NCBI GenBank assembly: GCA_944376195.1
Contig: CALWBW010000004.1
Coordinates: 14,313-78,312 of the forward strand
Source of the DNA: an uncultured Clostridia bacterium
GTDB lineage: Bacteria; Bacillota; Clostridia; Oscillospirales; QAMX01
DNA length: 64,000 bases
Reading direction: 5' to 3'
Shown here: positions 7,296 to 17,949 of the stretch, in pieces
Layout: each line of letters opens with the position of its first letter
Numbering within the stretch: position 1 is the stretch's first letter
Translations under genes and position numbers: made by a program
The notes under the pieces: model-generated
The model's database searches: none
The model's input: only the letters and a program-made list of their open reading frames with translations
What the model was told of the DNA's origin: nothing

Positions 7296-7718
7296 TTAGT
7301 TTTTGCTCTCCATGTAGTGGCTCTTGATACGCAAACGGCTGATGGCGCGGGCCAATTGCGCCTGCGCAGAACGATACTCCTGAATACTTTTTTTCTGCAA
7401 CAGTTCTTCTTTCGCCTCATCCGCTGCACGCTGCGCGCGATTGGCGTCAATGTCTTCCGGCCGTTCGGCGGAATCGACAAGCACCAGCACTTCGTTATTC
7501 TCCACTTTGACCAGTCCGGAGGAAACTGCGGCAATTCGAGGCGCTTCACCCGGGAGCGTATAGGAAAGCGCACCCGGAACAACAGCCATAATGACATTGC
7601 TGTGTCCGGCGAGAATCCCATACTGCCCCTGCGGCGTCGGAATTACAACCGATTCACAGGCCCCCTCATAAAAGGGGCAGTCGGCGGCCAGAATGGATAT
7701 CTGAAACGTATTTCCCAT
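7296..7718 (-). CDS. atpC: F-type ATP synthase epsilon subunit
   Basis: GQYGILAGH, SSGLVKV, LVDSAERPEDID, C-terminal helices; ATG at 7718 directly after the atpD stop. Confidence 0.9.
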   Translation of the reverse strand: MGNTFQISILAADCPFYEGACESVVIPTPQGQYGILAGHSNVIMAVVPGALSYTLPGEAPRIAAVSSGLVKVENNEVLVLVDSAERPEDIDANRAQRAADEAKEELLQKKSIQEYRSAQAQLARAISRLRIKSHYMESKN

Positions 7719-7719
7719 C

Positions 7720-9126
<1,407 letters not shown>

Positions 9127-10029
9127 CTATGCCTCCCTGCTATGTTTCCGTTTCTGTGCCTTGGCACCTGAGGATACCTCTGTAATCTCCTGTGTAATTG
9201 CCGCCTGGCGCACGCGATTATACTGCACCGACAAATCACTCAAAATTTTTTCCGCATTCTGATTGGCCGAATCCATCGCCGTCATGCGTGCATTCTGTTC
9301 ACTGCAAAAACTGTCGACCAGCGCACTGTAGATAAAACCCGATACATAACTCTGCATCACATTATCCAAAACACTGGAAATGGACGGGGAAAATTCAAAA
9401 GAAACAGAATCTTGCTGCGGTGTTCCGGCGGCGGCCGTGAACTGTCTTCTGTGAAACGGCAAAAGCCGTGTAGAAACCGCTTCCGCATCCAGGCCGTTTT
9501 TCATGTCCGTATAAACAACAAAAATTTTATCGAGCTCACCCGCGTTAAACAGATCAAGCAAAATCGCAGAAATTTCCCTTGCGCGATGCATCGTCGGATT
9601 CTGCGCGGTATACAGGAAACTGCGCTCTATTGGGATATGGTGCTGCGAGAAAAACTGCCGGCCATACTCACCGACAACAAACAGTTTGGTGTCCTGGTGA
9701 TCCGATAACAGCTGCATAGTTTCTCGAATCACATTCAAGTTATAGGCGCCTGCAAGACCTTTATCCGCCGTTATGACCAGACAGCCATAGGTTCCATTCA
9801 AAGCTGCGCTGCCCTCCACCGGATAAAAATACTTGCTGTCGACTTCCTTGTCCGTACGGAAAATCCGCTTAATTTCTGCCTGTAACGCATGAAAATACGG
9901 CCGTGTCTGATCCAGTTCACTCTTTGCCTTGCGAAGCTTGGTAGAGGCAATCAAATACATGGCATTTGTGATCTTCTGCGTCTCCCGCACACTGTTGATA
10001 TGTGTCTTAATTTCCTTGGTATTCGGCAT
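9127..10029 (-). CDS. atpG: F-type ATP synthase gamma subunit
   Basis: KITNAM, DKGLAGAYN, SEQNARMTAMD, RQAAITQEITE. Confidence 0.95.
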   Translation of the reverse strand: MPNTKEIKTHINSVRETQKITNAMYLIASTKLRKAKSELDQTRPYFHALQAEIKRIFRTDKEVDSKYFYPVEGSAALNGTYGCLVITADKGLAGAYNLNVIRETMQLLSDHQDTKLFVVGEYGRQFFSQHHIPIERSFLYTAQNPTMHRAREISAILLDLFNAGELDKIFVVYTDMKNGLDAEAVSTRLLPFHRRQFTAAAGTPQQDSVSFEFSPSISSVLDNVMQSYVSGFIYSALVDSFCSEQNARMTAMDSANQNAEKILSDLSVQYNRVRQAAITQEITEVSSGAKAQKRKHSREA

Positions 10030-10044
10030 TTCGGATCACCGTCC

Positions 10045-11787
10045 TTATCGAGCTGCCTTTTCCCTGTAACGCTTCATAAAACCCTTTGCCAGTTCGACCA
10101 CATTGGCCTTCAATTCATCCGACAACGCTCCGGTCTGCTCAATCTCAATCCGGATATAAGGCGCCTCTTCTTCCAAATAACGCAGAAACGCTCGATGGAA
10201 CGCCCCGGTTTCCTCCGGTGCCAGCTCCTGGGTCACGTGGCTGAGCGCCACCACCAGCATCACCACCTGCTCATACTGCTGCAAGGGATGATACTGCTCC
10301 TGCTTTAAAAGCTGCATCAGACTCTGACCATACGCCAACTGGCGTTTGGTCGCATCGTCCAAATCACTGGAAAACTGCGTAAAGACCTCCATTTCCCGGT
10401 ACTGCGCCAAATCCAATCGAATGGTCCCGGTTGCGGACTTCATGGCTTTCGTCTGCGCATCACGACCCACACGGGAGACGGAAAGCCCCACATTCACCGC
10501 AGGTCGCTGTCCAGCAAAAAACAAATCGCTCTCCAGAAAAATCTGGCCATCTGTGATAGAAATAATGTTGGTAGGAATATAAGCAGACACGTCGCCGGCC
10601 TGCGTTTCCACAATCGGAAGCGCGGTCATGCTGCCGCCGCCCTTTTCGTCAGACAAATGTGCAGCGCGTTCCAGAAGCCGGGAATGCAGGTAAAAGACGT
10701 CGCCCGGGTATGCCTCACGTCCCGGAGAACGCTCCAGCAACAGGCTAAGCGCCCGATATGCAATGGCATGTTTGGACAAATCGTCATACACAATCAGGAC
10801 ATCTTTGCCCCTGTTCATAAAATACTCGCCCATTGCACAGCCCGCATAGGGAGCAATGTATTGAAGCGGCGCCGTATCGCTGGCCGACGCATTGACTACT
10901 ATGGTATAATCCATGGCGTCATGACGGCGGAGCGTCTCCACCAGCTGCGCGACAGAGCTGGACTTCTGCCCAATTGCCACATAAATGCAGATGACATCTT
11001 TCCCCTTTTGGTTTAAGATTGTGTCCAATGCAATCGCTGTTTTCCCGGTCTGACGGTCGCCGATAATCAGTTCACGCTGACCACGTCCGATAGGAAACAT
11101 CGAGTCAATTGCCAGAAGCCCGGTTTCCATCGGGCGATTGACCGGCTGACGGTCAATGATATTTGGAGCAGGTGCCTCAATCGGGCGATAATCTTCTTCC
11201 TGAATAGCGCCTTTTCCGTCAATGGGTGCGCCAAGCGCATTTATCACTCGACCGACAAAATCTTCGCCGACCGGAATACCAGCCATCATCCCCGTCCGTT
11301 TGACGATGCTTCCTTGCAAAATTTCCTGTTCTTCTCCAAAGAGAATACAGCCGATTTCCTTTTGCCTCAAATCCTGAACCATGCCGCGAATGCCAGAGGA
11401 AAAAATCAAAATTTCGCCATATGCGGCATGTTCCAAACCGCCAACCGTCGCAATCCCATCACCGACAGTTAAAACAGTTCCCACTTCCTCCGCCAAGGCA
11501 CGCGGCGTCCAGTTCTTTACAGTATCCTGCAAAAGCGGGATAATCCCGCCCGTCATGGAAGGGAGCTGTTTCCAGAGTTCTTGCAATTGTGCAAACCGGC
11601 CCTTCAAGCTCCAATCATATACATCGGAACCGATTTCCAGACGAAACCCGCTTGCAATTGTGGGGTCGTTTTCCCAAACCAAATCAACCTGTGCGCCGTA
11701 CTTTTCTTCCAAAAAGACAACGATTCGTTCTTTTTGAGACGCATCAGGCGGCGTCAATCCTTTCAGAACCGCTCGCAACTCACTCAT
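10045..11787 (-). CDS. atpA: F-type ATP synthase alpha subunit with N-terminal delta(OSCP) C-terminal-like domain
   Basis: [28 protein letters not shown]; 580 aa, with about 75 extra N-terminal residues containing [20 protein letters not shown]. Confidence 0.93.
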
Positions 11788-12280
11788 GATTCTGCTCCTT
11801 TGACGCGGCGTCTAAAAAATCCTCGTAAATTTTTGAAGCATCGGTTTTCAACAGTTTCTGAGTCGCCTCAACTGCAAGCTGGGCAATTTCTTCTCTTGCC
11901 TCGCTCAACATTTTTTTACGTTCCATTTGTGCGGACTGCTGCGCGGCTGCAAGGAGCTTTTCGCTCTGCTCCTGCGCCTTTTTCAGCTGTGCGGCAGCGG
12001 CCAGTTCGGATTCCTTCGCGGCTTTCGATCTCAGCTGGCTGATTTCTGCTTCCGCCTGATCCAGCTGTTTTTGATATTCCGCCTCCATGGCCTCGGCATG
12101 CGCCAGTTTTTCTCCGGCAGCATCGTCCATACTTTGGTAATAAGCGGTCCGTTTTTCCATAAAGTTTTTCACCGGCTTATAAAGCAACAGATACAAGCCG
12201 CCTGCTAAAATTGCAAAGTTAAAAAGATGCAGAAGGATCTGCTGCCAATCGATATTCAACGGAACTCCCACGATCTTCAC
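11780..12280 (-). CDS. atpF: F-type ATP synthase b subunit
   Basis: N-terminal TM ([21 protein letters not shown]) followed by an Ala/Glu-rich coiled coil; operon position. Confidence 0.9.
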
Positions 12281-12286
12281 ACACCT

Positions 12287-12658
12287 TTACAATACAAATA
12301 TAATCAAAATTGCGACAATCAACGCATAAATAATAGCGGTCTCGATAAACACCAAGCCCAGCATCATCGTCGTACGAATGCGGCCTTCCGCCTCCGGCTG
12401 ACGGGAAATTCCCTCCGAAGATTTCGCGATGGCAATACCCATACCAACTGCGCCGCCCGCCGCCGCAAGGCCAACTGCTACGGCAGCTGCCAGTGCTTTA
12501 TCACCCGTGGAGTCGGCAGCGTCAGCCTCTTCTGTCAGGGCTGTCGGCGTCTCTACAGCCTCATCATTGGTCTCCCCCGCCGCAAATGCCGGCATAACAC
12601 AGAATGACGCCACCGCAATCAGCATCAGCAGGAATATCCACACATTTTTTCTGTTCAT
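12287..12658 (-). CDS. atpE: F-type ATP synthase c subunit with signal-peptide-like extension
   Basis: GLAAAGGAVGMG, RQPE loop, FIETAIIY with the carrier Glu; about 50 extra N-terminal residues. Confidence 0.92.
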   Translation of the reverse strand: MNRKNVWIFLLMLIAVASFCVMPAFAAGETNDEAVETPTALTEEADAADSTGDKALAAAVAVGLAAAGGAVGMGIAIAKSSEGISRQPEAEGRIRTTMMLGLVFIETAIIYALIVAILIIFVL

Positions 12659-12684: not shown

Positions 12685-13527
12685 TTACAGGCTCGCAGCC
12701 TGCTTTTTTAACTTTCTTGATTTTTGTTTCTGACGTGGTTCCGACACCTCTCCATAGAAAAGCGCCGTGAGCATCGTCAGAACATAGGCCTGTATCAGCG
12801 CATGCAGCAATGTGAATAATACGCCAACAACCACTGGCAAAACAAAGCTCAGACTGATGTAATAATAAACCAGCTCCGTAACCAAAAGCCCGCTGAGTAG
12901 TGCGCCAAAAAGACGGAAGCTCATAGAAATCGGCAGAGAAAAATCCTTTAACGTCTTTCCCACACCGCGGATTCCATTCCCTGCAATTCCACCGGACAAA
13001 ATCACCAGATAGGACAGACAGCCCATACAAATTGCAGCGTTAATATCGGACAGAGGTGCCGGCAAGGCAATAGACGTGCCCTCCACCGTAACTGCTTGGA
13101 ACCCAAACAATTCAAACAACGTCCCGACAAAAATATAAACACCTGCACCGAAAATGTATGCACCCAAAAAGCCGTTCTTGTGAGGACTGTTGGATTTTGC
13201 CAACCCATCAAATAGGGAAACTGCCTGTTCAATCAATAATTGCAATTTTCCCGGCACATAGCGGAACCTGGGAATGAGGAAAATGCGGATGCACGCCGCC
13301 AGACAGAGTAAAATTCCTGTCACCAAAAATCCGGAAATCATCGCCGGATTTACCTCCATAATCCCGAAAAGGCTAATTTTACCCGTTTCATGAAGAACGG
13401 CGTCGCGCATAACCACTTTGATGGATTCTTCTTCTCCGCCGTTCCCGGTTAAAATCCCGGCAACCAATAAAGCAAGTACGACACAAATCCAAATGGCGAT
13501 GCCTATCTTCCTTTTTTTCGCACTCAT
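12685..13527 (-). CDS. atpB: F-type ATP synthase a subunit (divergent)
   Basis: PGKLQLLIE, PLSDIN, SMSFRLFG (essential Arg), IQAYVLTML. Confidence 0.88.
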   Translation of the reverse strand: MSAKKRKIGIAIWICVVLALLVAGILTGNGGEEESIKVVMRDAVLHETGKISLFGIMEVNPAMISGFLVTGILLCLAACIRIFLIPRFRYVPGKLQLLIEQAVSLFDGLAKSNSPHKNGFLGAYIFGAGVYIFVGTLFELFGFQAVTVEGTSIALPAPLSDINAAICMGCLSYLVILSGGIAGNGIRGVGKTLKDFSLPISMSFRLFGALLSGLLVTELVYYYISLSFVLPVVVGVLFTLLHALIQAYVLTMLTALFYGEVSEPRQKQKSRKLKKQAASL

Positions 13528-13998: not shown

Positions 13999-15744
13999 TT
14001 ATTCGTATTTCTTTCTGGCTACATACGTCGTATGCAGAATCTCATGCGCTTTGTGGCTGCCGGGTTTTTCGAGATAAGTCTCATAAATTTCCTTCACAAC
14101 CGGATTCTCATGGCTCTTACGAAGCGTCATTGCAGCGTCTTCGCTGTACAGAGCCTTAGCACGCTCCGCACGCAGATCAACAAAGTTCCGCACATAGCCG
14201 GGCTGATCAGGCTGACCGCCGCCGTTGACACAACCGCCGGGGCAGCACATGACTTCAATAAAGTGATAATTCTTCTCACCGGACTTCACACGGTCAAGCA
14301 ATTTTGCAGCATTGGCCAAACCGGAAGTAACCGCAACATTTACCTTCGTACCGCCGATATCGTAGGTAGCTTCTTTAATATCCTCCGTGCCACGTACTTC
14401 CGTATAATCTACAGTCGGAGCCGGAGCGCCGGTGACAATCTCATATACGGTACGCAGGGCAGCTTCCATAACGCCGCCGGTCGCGCCGAAGATATGGCCG
14501 GCACCGGACGCAATACCAAAGGCCGGATCAAATTCTTCGTCGGGCAGAGAATCAAACTGGATACCAGCGCGCTTAATCATGTTGGCCAGCTCCACTGTCG
14601 TGATGGAAACGTCAATATCCGGATAACCGGAAGCGCTCTGGTCTGCGCGGCCGATTTCGAACTTCTTGGCCGTACAGGGCATCACGGAAACTACGAAAAT
14701 GTCCTTCGGGTCAATTCCCGCTTTTTCCGCATAGTAAGTCTTCATCAACGCACCATACATCTGCTGCGGGGACTTACAGGAGGAGATGTTCGGAATAAAC
14801 TCCGGATAATATGTCTCGCAGAATTTTACCCAACCAGGGGAGCAGGAAGTGAGCAGCGGAAGTGTTCCGCCGTTTTTCATCCGCTCGAGCAACTCGGTGC
14901 CTTCTTCCATGATGGTAACATCTGCGGCGGTATCGACATCAAAGACCTTATCAAAACCAAGTCTTCTCAGCGCAGCAACCAGTTTTCCTTCCACATTCGT
15001 GCCGATCGGCATACCAAAGCACTCACCCAGCTGAGCGCGCACGGAAGGTGCAGGGCCTACGACAACATGCTTGGTCGGATCAGCAAGGGCGTCCCAGACC
15101 TTTTGCGTATCGTCCTTCGGCTGCAAAGCGCCGGTCGGGCAGACCGTGATGCACTGACCGCAGTTAATACAGGGCGTATCTGCCAAATCCATTTCAAACG
15201 GACTAGCAATGTGCGTCCGGAAGCCGCGCTCATTCGCGCCGATCACGGAAACAAACTGATTGGTACGGCACACCGCTTCACAGCGGCGGCAAAGAATGCA
15301 CTTGGAATTATCGCGAATCAGATGCGGGGCAGACGTATCGAGATCCACCGGAATCTCACGGCCGTCGCCATACTTATACTGATCAACGCCATACTCTTTT
15401 GCTAAAGTTGCCAGTTCGCAGTTCCCATTACGCGGGCAGGAGAGGCAGTCCATCCGGTGGTTAGAGAGGATCAATTCCAACGTTGTCTTTCTCGCCTTAC
15501 GCAGCGCAGGCGTATTGGTAAAGACCTCCATCCCATTGTTGACGGGATAAACGCAAGCGGCCGCAAGAGCGCGAGCGCCCTTGACTTCCACCAAGCACAT
15601 ACGGCAGGCGCCGATTGCATTGATTCCTTTTAAATAACACAGGGTCGGGATACGAACGCCCGCCATGTGTGCGGCTTCCAGAATTGTCGAACCTACCGGG
15701 GCGTCGACTTCTATGCCGTTTATCTTCACTTTTACGGTATCCAT
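13999..15744 (-). CDS. hydA: [FeFe]-hydrogenase catalytic subunit (HydA/HndD, NADH-linked/bifurcating type)
   Basis: N-terminal 2Fe-2S, His-ligated and 2x4Fe-4S domains; H-cluster motifs TSCSPGW, MPCTAKKFE, EVMCCPGGCVNGGGQP; small-subunit tail RKSHENP. Confidence 0.95.
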   Translation of the reverse strand: MDTVKVKINGIEVDAPVGSTILEAAHMAGVRIPTLCYLKGINAIGACRMCLVEVKGARALAAACVYPVNNGMEVFTNTPALRKARKTTLELILSNHRMDCLSCPRNGNCELATLAKEYGVDQYKYGDGREIPVDLDTSAPHLIRDNSKCILCRRCEAVCRTNQFVSVIGANERGFRTHIASPFEMDLADTPCINCGQCITVCPTGALQPKDDTQKVWDALADPTKHVVVGPAPSVRAQLGECFGMPIGTNVEGKLVAALRRLGFDKVFDVDTAADVTIMEEGTELLERMKNGGTLPLLTSCSPGWVKFCETYYPEFIPNISSCKSPQQMYGALMKTYYAEKAGIDPKDIFVVSVMPCTAKKFEIGRADQSASGYPDIDVSITTVELANMIKRAGIQFDSLPDEEFDPAFGIASGAGHIFGATGGVMEAALRTVYEIVTGAPAPTVDYTEVRGTEDIKEATYDIGGTKVNVAVTSGLANAAKLLDRVKSGEKNYHFIEVMCCPGGCVNGGGQPDQPGYVRNFVDLRAERAKALYSEDAAMTLRKSHENPVVKEIYETYLEKPGSHKAHEILHTTYVARKKYE

Positions 15745-15759
15745 TGTGTACGTCCCTCC

Positions 15760-17559
15760 TTACTTTCTCGATATTGCGCCGAATCTGCACTTTTCCATAC
15801 AGGCGCCGCACTTCAGGCACTTTTCCGGATCGATGACATGCGCTTCCTTGACCTTGCCGGTGATTGCCTCGGCAGGGCAAACTCTAGCGCAGGCCGTACA
15901 ACCACGGCACTTATCCGGATCGATCGTATAGCGCAATAGGTGCTTACAGACGCCCGCCGGGCAGCGCTTCTCCACAACATGCGCAACATACTCGTCACGG
16001 AAATAACGCAGCGTGGAAAGAACAGGGTTCGGAGCAGTCTGTCCAAGTCCGCAGAGGGAGTTGGCCTTGATGTGATAACACAGTTCTTCCAGTTTATCCA
16101 GATCTTCCAGAGTTCCGTTGCCTCTCGTAATCTTATCGAGAATTTCGAGCAGGCGCTTTGTACCAATGCGGCAGGGCGCGCACTTACCGCAAGACTCTTC
16201 AACGGTGAACTCCAGGAAGAACTTGGCGATATCTACCATACAGTCGGTCTCGTCCATAACAATCAGACCGCCGGAACCAACAATGGAACCAATTGCCGCC
16301 ATGCTCTCATAATCAAGAGGCGTATCAATGAGGGAAGCCGGGATACAACCGCCGGAAGGACCGCCGGTCTGTGCCGCCTTAAACTTCTTACCATTTGGAA
16401 TGCCGCCGCCGATATCTTCTACGACCTGACGGAGCGTTGTGCCCATCGGCACTTCCACAAGGCCGGTATTGTGAATCTTACCACCAAGGGCAAAGACCTT
16501 GGTACCCTTGGACTTCTCAGTACCCATGGAAGCAAACCAATCCGCACCCTTCAAGATGATCTGCGGAATGTTGGCGTAAGTCTCAACATTGTTCAGAATA
16601 GAAGGTTTCTGGAACAGACCCTTCTCAGCCGGGAACGGCGGACGCGGACGCGGCTCACCGCGATTTCCTTCAATGGAGGTCATCAAAGCAGTTTCTTCAC
16701 CGCACACAAACGCACCGGCGCCCAGACGGAGATCAATATCAAAATCAAAGCCCGTATCCAGAATGTTTTTACCAAGCAAGCCGTATTCACGAGCCTGTGC
16801 AATTGCAATCGACAAACGCTGAACGGCAATCGGGTACTCAGCACGGACATAAATATAACCCTGATTCGCGCCGATGGTATAACCGGCAATCGCCATAGCT
16901 TCCAGCACAGAGTGCGGGTCGCCTTCCAAAACGGAACGATCCATAAAGGCACCGGGGTCACCTTCGTCGGCGTTGCAGCAAACGTACTTCTGATCGTTTT
17001 CATACGCTCTTGCAAACTTCCACTTCATGCCGGTCGGGAAGCCTGCGCCGCCGCGGCCACGGAGACCGGATGCCAGCAACGTATTAATGACGTCATCCGG
17101 CGTCATTTCCGTCAGCACTTTGGCAAGCGCCATATAGCCGTCCCGGGCTATGTACTCGTCAATCACTTCCGGGTTGATTACGCCGCAGTTACGCAGCGCC
17201 ACACGCTTCTGTGCCTTATAGAAGTTCGTATCGCTCAAAGAAGAAACACCGTGCTCATTTGCCTTGTCTTCGGCGCCGTCGTTATAAATCAAACGCTCGA
17301 CAGGACGGCCCTTCAAAAGATGCTCTTCCACGATTTCCGAAACGTCCTCGTTCGTGACACGGCTATAGAACGTGCCTTCCGGATAGACGATCATGATGGG
17401 GCCGAGTGCGCACAACCCGAAGCAACCGGTCTGCACAACTTTAATTTCATCCGACAGGCCCTTTGCTGCCAGTTCATTTTCCAGATGCTCTCTGATCTTC
17501 TGGCTGCCCGACGAAGTACAGCCGGTACCGCCGCAAATCAATACATGTGAACGTATCAT
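15760..17559 (-). CDS. hydB: NuoF-like FMN/NADH-binding hydrogenase subunit (HydB/HndC)
   Basis: GLRGRGGAGFPTG, NADEGDPG, ESCGKCAPCR; N-terminal thioredoxin-like 2Fe-2S and C-terminal 2x4Fe-4S domains. Confidence 0.93.
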   Translation of the reverse strand: MIRSHVLICGGTGCTSSGSQKIREHLENELAAKGLSDEIKVVQTGCFGLCALGPIMIVYPEGTFYSRVTNEDVSEIVEEHLLKGRPVERLIYNDGAEDKANEHGVSSLSDTNFYKAQKRVALRNCGVINPEVIDEYIARDGYMALAKVLTEMTPDDVINTLLASGLRGRGGAGFPTGMKWKFARAYENDQKYVCCNADEGDPGAFMDRSVLEGDPHSVLEAMAIAGYTIGANQGYIYVRAEYPIAVQRLSIAIAQAREYGLLGKNILDTGFDFDIDLRLGAGAFVCGEETALMTSIEGNRGEPRPRPPFPAEKGLFQKPSILNNVETYANIPQIILKGADWFASMGTEKSKGTKVFALGGKIHNTGLVEVPMGTTLRQVVEDIGGGIPNGKKFKAAQTGGPSGGCIPASLIDTPLDYESMAAIGSIVGSGGLIVMDETDCMVDIAKFFLEFTVEESCGKCAPCRIGTKRLLEILDKITRGNGTLEDLDKLEELCYHIKANSLCGLGQTAPNPVLSTLRYFRDEYVAHVVEKRCPAGVCKHLLRYTIDPDKCRGCTACARVCPAEAITGKVKEAHVIDPEKCLKCGACMEKCRFGAISRK

Positions 17560-17577
17560 GTTGGTTTTCCCTCCAAA

Positions 17578-17949
17578 TTAGTTCTGAGCTGCGCCGATCG
17601 TATATTCGTGAACGATCTTACCGCCTTTGATGTGCTCTTCCACAACACGGCGGGCTTTTTCAGCAGTCATCTTAACATAGGTGACTTTATCTTTTCCGGC
17701 TTCAAAAATCTCCACGACCGGCTCGTACTGGCAAATACCAATGCAGCCCGTCTGGGTGACGGTTGCCTTTTCGGTCAGGCCCTGCTTGTTTACTTCCTCC
17801 ACAAACGCATTCAGCACAGGACGGGCTCCCGCCGCAATGCCGCAGGTGGCCATACCGACTACCACACGCATACCGGCTGTTCCATTACGCAGGGAGACCT
17901 TGTCTTTCATACTGTCACGGATTGCTTGGAGTTCCGCTAACGTTTTCAT
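17578..17949 (-). CDS. Thioredoxin-like 2Fe-2S ferredoxin subunit (HydD/HndB-like)
   Basis: VGMATCGIAAGA, TGCIGICQYEP. Confidence 0.88.
   Translation of the reverse strand: MKTLAELQAIRDSMKDKVSLRNGTAGMRVVVGMATCGIAAGARPVLNAFVEEVNKQGLTEKATVTQTGCIGICQYEPVVEIFEAGKDKVTYVKMTAEKARRVVEEHIKGGKIVHEYTIGAAQN

Follow-up and report, generated by a model that had tools for sequence, protein, structure and literature searches.

The F-type ATP synthase operon of an uncultured Clostridia bacterium, in a window of 64,000 nucleotides (the whole stretch of contig CALWBW010000004.1 that was analysed), raises the question of where its delta subunit has gone and, if delta has become part of another subunit, of how many peripheral stalks the enzyme carries. 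According to the list of open reading frames in the window and their translations, the operon is complete, lies on the minus strand and follows the order atpB-E-F-A-G-D-C. All seven genes are intact. Its features, in the order of transcription, are the following.

12685..13527, minus strand: atpB, Fo subunit a, 280 aa (open reading frame; PF00119 ATP-synt_A on residues 72-258, 63.9 bits)
12287..12658, minus strand: atpE, Fo subunit c, 123 aa (open reading frame; PF00137 on residues 56-119)
11780..12280, minus strand: atpF, Fo subunit b, 166 aa, the sole b gene (PF00430, 70 bits)
10045..11787, stop codon included, minus strand: atpA, fusion of a delta C-domain and alpha, 580 aa (open reading frame, Pfam, NCBIfam)
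11569..11778, minus strand: delta/OSCP C-terminal (b-binding) domain, AtpA residues 4-73 (PF00213, fold, PDB match)
11545..11568, minus strand: short linker QLPSMTGG, AtpA residues 74-81, including the non-conserved Met78
10048..11544, minus strand: canonical alpha, AtpA residues 82-580 (TIGR00962; PF02874, PF00006, PF00306)
9127..10029, minus strand: atpG (gamma), 300 aa (open reading frame and operon position; named from its translation)
7720..9120, minus strand: atpD (beta), 466 aa (open reading frame; PF00006, 246.7 bits at this place, contig C4)
7296..7718, minus strand: atpC (epsilon) (open reading frame; start inferred from the translation, at the Met of MGNTFQ)

The start of atpC was placed directly past the atpD stop; the listed open reading frame (7296-7829) extends further upstream, from a GTG. 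The stop of atpF and the start of atpA overlap by 8 nt (11780-11787, ATGAGTGA), and because of this direct overlap no atpH lies between the b and alpha genes. AtpA is about 75-80 residues longer than a usual alpha. Directly upstream of the operon and on the same strand, three open reading frames of 581, 599 and 123 aa (13999-17949, minus) resemble a HydABC-type [FeFe] hydrogenase, as read by eye from their translations.

The supplementary residues of AtpA come from delta. Residues 4-70 match positions 103-170 of the 172-position OSCP profile PF00213 (E 1e-8, 35.9 bits, cut-off 22.3), and the first 81 aa by themselves reach 39.7 bits. For profile positions 1-102, the N-terminal helical bundle of delta, no match was found in AtpA. 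TIGR01145, the model of a full delta, gives 28.9 on AtpA, under its cut-off of 57.5, and in 12 delta or b/delta models of NCBIfam the N-terminal piece matches just the final ~60 positions. The alpha model TIGR00962 covers residues 82-574, starting at profile position 7 (742.3 bits, cut-off 484.45); this part has the canonical N-terminal helix, beta-barrel, nucleotide-binding domain and C-terminal domain. Among PDB chains, the Chloroflexus aurantiacus delta (9itj_S) matches the N-terminal domain best by sequence, over positions 98-153 (E 8.8e-6).

Structure prediction gave the same picture. An AF2 model of AtpA residues 1-125, built on a 37-row alignment, folds residues 5-73 as strand-helix-three strands-helix, i.e. 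a four-strand, two-helix domain, with a block-mean pLDDT of 75-87 across residues 1-60; pLDDT drops in the linker, which is modelled with low confidence, and residues 83-91 then form the N-terminal helix of alpha. Upon comparison with the PDB by Foldseek, ranks 1-44 were filled exclusively by chains of delta, of OSCP, of mycobacterial b-delta and of 9JC1, the engineered fusion discussed below, and the C. aurantiacus delta (9ITJ) ranked first. The initial annotation had proposed, from the letters alone, a delta C-terminal domain fused to alpha and the loss of the delta N-domain. Both proposals hold, and the peptide it quoted (AtpA residues 6-65) falls inside the delta C-domain match.

Compared with a genome of the same genus (G003), dN/dS is 0.12 for the delta domain, 0.06 for the linker with the following helix and 0.02 for the alpha core, figures that are rough because dS is 1.2-2.2. 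The delta part of AtpA is under purifying selection, and AtpA is confirmed as a natural fusion of alpha with a delta deprived of its N-domain.

Does the cell have another delta, or another alpha? Its genome is 94.4% complete and comprises 83 contigs (2.2 Mb); searched in six frames with PF00213 at E<=10, it gave a match at the AtpA place alone, which bears out the absence of atpH noted in the initial annotation. The alpha/beta-type ATPase pairs of this genome are one F-type pair and one V-type A/B pair, and the V/A-type ATPase lies on contig C50:8885-11064. The start ATG of the fused atpA has a strong Shine-Dalgarno sequence, AAAGGAG, 8 nt upstream. Before the ATG of the internal Met78 (SMTGG) no Shine-Dalgarno-like motif was found, again as initially annotated. 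Met78 is missing in the relatives P0003, P0004, G027 and G028, and its alignment column is not conserved. G028 has no in-frame ATG, GTG or TTG across the 55 codons preceding the beta-barrel, and therefore alpha can be made there solely as the fusion. As predicted from these sequences, the delta C-domain is the first ~73 residues of every alpha subunit translated, with no conserved internal start. In the RNA libraries X5, X6 and X9, short contigs (151-184 nt) fell on atpA, none of them over the delta-coding part.

We then asked how widespread the fusion is. Genomes, one for each species, were scanned for the motif [ETK][IV]GS[DEV][VI]YDW; of the 111 candidates obtained, 106 proved to be relatives, and the 80 best were retained. 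In all 80 of these best loci the delta domain is in the same open frame as alpha, and the strict Walker A pattern fits 79 of them. By their record titles they belong to Oscillospiraceae/Ruminococcaceae, Anaerovoracaceae/Mogibacterium, Lachnospiraceae, Acutalibacteraceae, Christensenellaceae-like MAGs and Gallimonas; two isolates, Flintibacter faecis BX5 and Lachnospiraceae bacterium FE2018, carry the fusion. An independent metagenome contig of 1871 nt (run X1, probably DNA) spans 10530-12400 of the window with 33 substitutions and 0 gaps. A quick IQ-TREE analysis of 116 alpha cores was rooted at midpoint only, L015 and L067 being dropped as too short. A branch with an SH-aLRT of 95 separates 79 of the 80 rows classed as delta-C-alpha, along with a full delta-alpha fusion from G038, from the seven canonical alphas of relatives, from G034, whose own branch is long, and from 25 of the triple fusions described below. 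The delta-C-alpha architecture is conserved, and under selection, across a clade of Clostridia F-type operons.

The operon is less constant than its architecture. When AtpA was searched in three other genomes of the genus, the operon was absent from G001 (93% complete) and G002 (88% complete): for F-type alpha, G001 had no match at E<=1e-20 and G002 just one, with 28% identity. Among 41 genomes of the order, the window's included, 19 had no OSCP match at E<=1. Both results speak against a central role. Because it was not found in G001 and G002, the operon is variably present, and thus accessory, and it could serve to pump ions at the expense of ATP rather than to synthesize ATP. The G028 genome (100% complete) has a canonical operon with a free 179-aa delta (C1:88684-89190) as well as a delta-C-alpha operon (C4:67970-68185), and hence the two operon types can coexist.

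The Fo subunits have peculiarities of their own. In subunit a, some 70 residues, including an extra N-terminal hydrophobic helix, precede the Pfam match, and the subunits a of G027 and G028 resemble this N-extended form. The N-terminus of the window's subunit c is signal-peptide-like (MNRKN, a hydrophobic run, AFA|AGE), followed by an acidic linker and a normal hairpin. Such an extension was found in 79 of the 80 delta-C-alpha operons, the remaining locus ending before the c gene; in these 79, 69-104 residues stand ahead of the RQPE loop, with an acidic or Ala-rich linker. The four operons used for comparison (L019, L020, L021, L012) have 31-36 residues before this loop and lack the extension.

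A fusion of this kind has in fact been engineered. Ueno et al. (Nat Commun 2025, PMC12229609; PDB 9JC1) removed residues 2-104 from delta of Bacillus PS3 and joined what was left, residues 105-178, to the N-terminus of alpha. The resulting enzyme binds b2 in the canonical way, carries as many as three stalks with an a-subunit for each, and has an H+/ATP ratio of 5.8. By cryo-EM the triple-stalk class was very rare, single-stalk classes were common and the average was about two stalks; pumping activity was lower. AtpA of the window has the same layout, a delta C-domain followed directly by alpha, with no delta N-domain. Both proteins are 580 aa long and co-linear (AtpA residues 27-562 versus 27-566 of 9jc1_I, E 1e-183), and the window's N-terminal model aligns by Foldseek to chains I, J and K of 9JC1 across 121-122 columns. 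The window's protein differs in being natural and not designed, with QLPSMTGG in place of an added linker. Its epsilon, as read from the translation, retains the C-terminal helices, and its c and a subunits have N-terminal extensions. The initial annotation had suggested, with reserve, up to three stalks in a "V-type-like" architecture or else idle or regulatory delta domains. This suggestion is the published reading of the engineered equivalent, so that the novelty implied for it is reduced, and the V-type likeness has to be abandoned, since each stalk of the engineered enzyme has its own a-subunit, unlike in V-type enzymes (PMC12229609).

Natural fusions are in print as well. Ueno et al. report that the Acidaminococcus fermentans operon has the same fusion without the delta N-domain, and name D2RLW6 (A. 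fermentans), G4Q3K6 and A0A1I2C5T3 in their Discussion and the legend of Supplementary Fig. 9 (PMC12229609). Mulkidjanian et al. (bioRxiv 10.64898/2026.10.01.756066) list delta-alpha fusions with a shortened delta, and tie short delta to extra stalks. The accessible text of an older survey of operons includes a Clostridia unit that lacks delta, but the fusions it names are b/delta ones only. Fusions of the A. fermentans type share with the window the missing delta N-domain and the lack of atpH, and a multi-stalk consequence is proposed for both; by their description they are from Negativicutes, while the nearest relatives of the window, by record title, are Oscillospiraceae and other Clostridia. 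In the F1Fo of C. aurantiacus, which has two stalks, two a-subunits and a shortened delta N-domain (PNAS 2025, PMC12002316; PDB 9ITJ), reduction of this domain accompanies more than one stalk. There, however, delta is a free 157-aa subunit whose shortened N-domain dimerises atop F1, whereas in the window the N-domain is gone and the C-domain is joined to alpha. The delta-alpha fusion is thus already in print as a kind, and the window is a genuine natural member of it.

N-ATPase operons have the gene order atpDC-QR-BEFAG, from which the order BEFAGDC of the window differs. What N-ATPase b and the mycobacterial b-delta fusion have in common with AtpA is a delta-like domain fused to a neighbouring stator subunit, and the window's N-terminal piece matches both positions 186-243 of the N-ATPase b model TIGR03321 (E 3e-4) and PRK13428. 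This match, together with the text of the Mulkidjanian preprint (bioRxiv 10.64898/2026.10.01.756066), supports the earlier remark that N-ATPases carry a delta-like end on b. In both of these systems the fusion partner is b, and copy number follows b, whereas in the window the partner is alpha. Scores remained under the N-ATPase cut-offs, with 602.5 for the alternate-alpha model TIGR03324 (cut-off 750.5) and 38.5 for TIGR03321 on the window's b (cut-off 224.7).

If the fused domain is a working part of the stator, b should bind to it. The C-terminal motif Y-E-D-F-L-D of b is conserved among relatives; in 35 b subunits taken from operons with the fusion, F155 never varies and L156 is kept by at least 90%. 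We predicted the complex of AtpA residues 1-110 with two copies of b residues 95-166. The prediction scored 0.48, versus 0.01 for the best control, its runs agreed in at least 69% of contacts and partner pLDDT was at least 73. The pass mark used is reached by 116 of 157 solved complexes and by 2 of 215 mismatched pairs; since scores of 0.60 or less include just 18 of the 157 solved complexes, but both passing mismatches, a pass at 0.48 is weak, and it may reflect the like complexes that are already solved. The b2 stalk may dock on the fused delta C-domain as it does on a free delta.

Among relatives, two other stator fusions were detected. A 672-aa protein of G038 (L020:4316-6331, plus strand) joins an entire delta, matching OSCP profile positions 12-172, in frame to alpha; in the alpha tree it branches basally on the delta-C-alpha side, its exact place being unresolved. 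As the three delta N-domains of such an enzyme cannot all sit on the axis, surplus delta parts are evidently tolerated. G031 (L019:2809-5067, minus strand) encodes a triple fusion of 753 aa, in the order transmembrane helix, long b helix, OSCP profile positions 99-171 and alpha; a separate 143-aa b' gene adjoins it. When 8000 candidates were scored against the first 265 residues of this b-deltaC-alpha protein, 710 database proteins matched at E<=1e-3. The 120 top-ranking ones among these 710 (P0006-P0125) are mostly 733-755 aa long, and most of them have precomputed Pfam matches to the b family PF00430 beside the OSCP and alpha domains. The triple-fusion proteins carry the plain NCBI name "subunit alpha". 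Our literature searches found no paper on such triple fusions in the accessible texts, and Supplementary Figure 1 of the Mulkidjanian preprint may show some. From its domain order, a b-deltaC-alpha fusion would tie one b to each alpha, which would make three b chains per complex.

How many stalks, then, does the natural delta-C-alpha enzyme have? We put at about even the chances that it carries more than one. The peptide bond to alpha would replace the usual grip of the delta N-domain on the alpha N-termini, and once the three-fold axis is free of an N-domain, all three alphas would present equivalent docking sites, so that some complexes at least could assemble more than one b2-a stalk. The engineered PS3 enzyme, the two-stalk enzyme of C. 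aurantiacus and the triple fusions of relatives favour this reading. Extra b2-a stalks would raise the number of ions moved per ATP, and a raised ion/ATP ratio would permit ATP synthesis at the low ion-motive force of an Rnf-dependent fermenter. RnfD is present in the genome of the window; RnfD and the hydrogenase-like cluster adjacent to the atp operon both fit a lifestyle at low ion-motive force. Multi-stalk assembly may be partial or costly, because in the engineered enzyme the triple-stalk class is very rare and pumping lower (PMC12229609). Having a single atpB and a single atpF gene is no guide to subunit numbers. An idea that we had considered, that extra b dimers cannot be stators without an a-subunit, was dropped, as the extra stalks of the engineered enzyme each bring one (PMC12229609).

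The main competitor of a multi-stalk enzyme is an enzyme with a single stalk and two idle delta C-domains, either unoccupied or used in assembly or regulation. The peptide bond would here merely replace the non-covalent grip of the delta N-domain, and limits on assembly or expression would restrict Fo to one a and one b2. We consider this a serious possibility, if short of an even chance. As far as PMC12229609 and PMC12002316 describe them, all known natural F-type enzymes except that of C. aurantiacus have one stalk, and single-stalk classes were common even in the engineered enzyme (PMC12229609). Gene order and gene number in the window's operon are canonical, and the full delta-alpha of G038, where three N-domain copies cannot all occupy the axis, is a case of delta parts in excess. 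However, the engineered equivalent recruits extra stalks with their a-subunits, no further changes being needed (PMC12229609), the N-domain, which is said to limit stalk number, has been lost throughout a large clade, and the b-deltaC-alpha triple fusions of relatives imply three b chains per complex.

Two further explanations were considered. Unfused alpha might be produced by internal initiation or proteolysis, giving complexes of one fused and two plain alphas, with delta and alpha at 1:3. Met78 is placed where a canonical alpha would begin, and the linker, being poorly conserved and of low pLDDT, could be cut; but Met78 has no Shine-Dalgarno-like motif ahead of it and is absent from P0003, P0004, G027 and G028, the last of which is without any in-frame start codon in the 55 codons before the barrel. 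Such a mixed pool of alphas is quite improbable. The fusion might also be an artefact or a decaying gene, namely a frameshifted or misassembled remnant of atpH joined to atpA in a dispensable operon. The genome is indeed a draft of 83 contigs, the F-type operon was not found in G001 and G002 of the genus, and the window's genome also has a V-type enzyme. Yet the same in-frame fusion recurs in all 80 kept loci, from many assemblies including isolate genomes, an independent metagenome contig crosses the region without gaps, the delta domain has a dN/dS of 0.12 and the seven operon genes are all intact. The artefact explanation is close to refuted.

By itself, the window is one more instance of a fusion already in print. 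The clade to which it belongs may have a wider meaning, which we put forward tentatively, at slightly under even odds: its enzymes would be F-type ATP synthases that are multi-stalk by nature, one c-ring being surrounded by two or three a-subunits. The marks of the clade would be the fused delta C-domain, an export signal on subunit c and an N-terminal extension of subunit a. The ion/ATP ratio of these enzymes would be two- to three-fold higher, allowing gut and rumen fermenters to make ATP from a small Rnf gradient, and the b-deltaC-alpha triple fusions would be their obligatory three-stalk form. Should natural delta-C-alpha enzymes prove to have several stalks and a-subunits, c-ring size would not be the only determinant of the ion/ATP ratio, and energy-yield estimates would change for many gut and rumen anaerobes. 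Since cultured carriers exist (Flintibacter faecis BX5, Lachnospiraceae bacterium FE2018), the published multi-stalk hypothesis is directly testable in a natural enzyme.

Protein databases were also searched with the N-terminal region. A word-based search with AtpA residues 1-95, of limited sensitivity, returned 5 proteins, and a profile search of 1.84 billion representatives gave 2703 matches at E<=1e-3, of which 269 at E<=1e-10. The best 150 profile matches are fragments of 62-453 aa, whose tails enter the alpha N-helix or junk. Because full-length fused alphas share 50%-identity clusters with ordinary alphas, this search yields no ratio of fused to free domains.

Some candidate variants were rejected upon inspection. 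The label "fullD" given to L065, L075 and L086 was based on stop-to-stop frame length alone, with no verified full delta behind it. In G034 (L021), the TAG of the b gene is in frame with delta-C-alpha and had been considered as a site of read-through; it lies within the Shine-Dalgarno sequence (TAGGAG) of the next ATG, and from its sequence the junction between b and delta-C-alpha looks like ordinary coupling.
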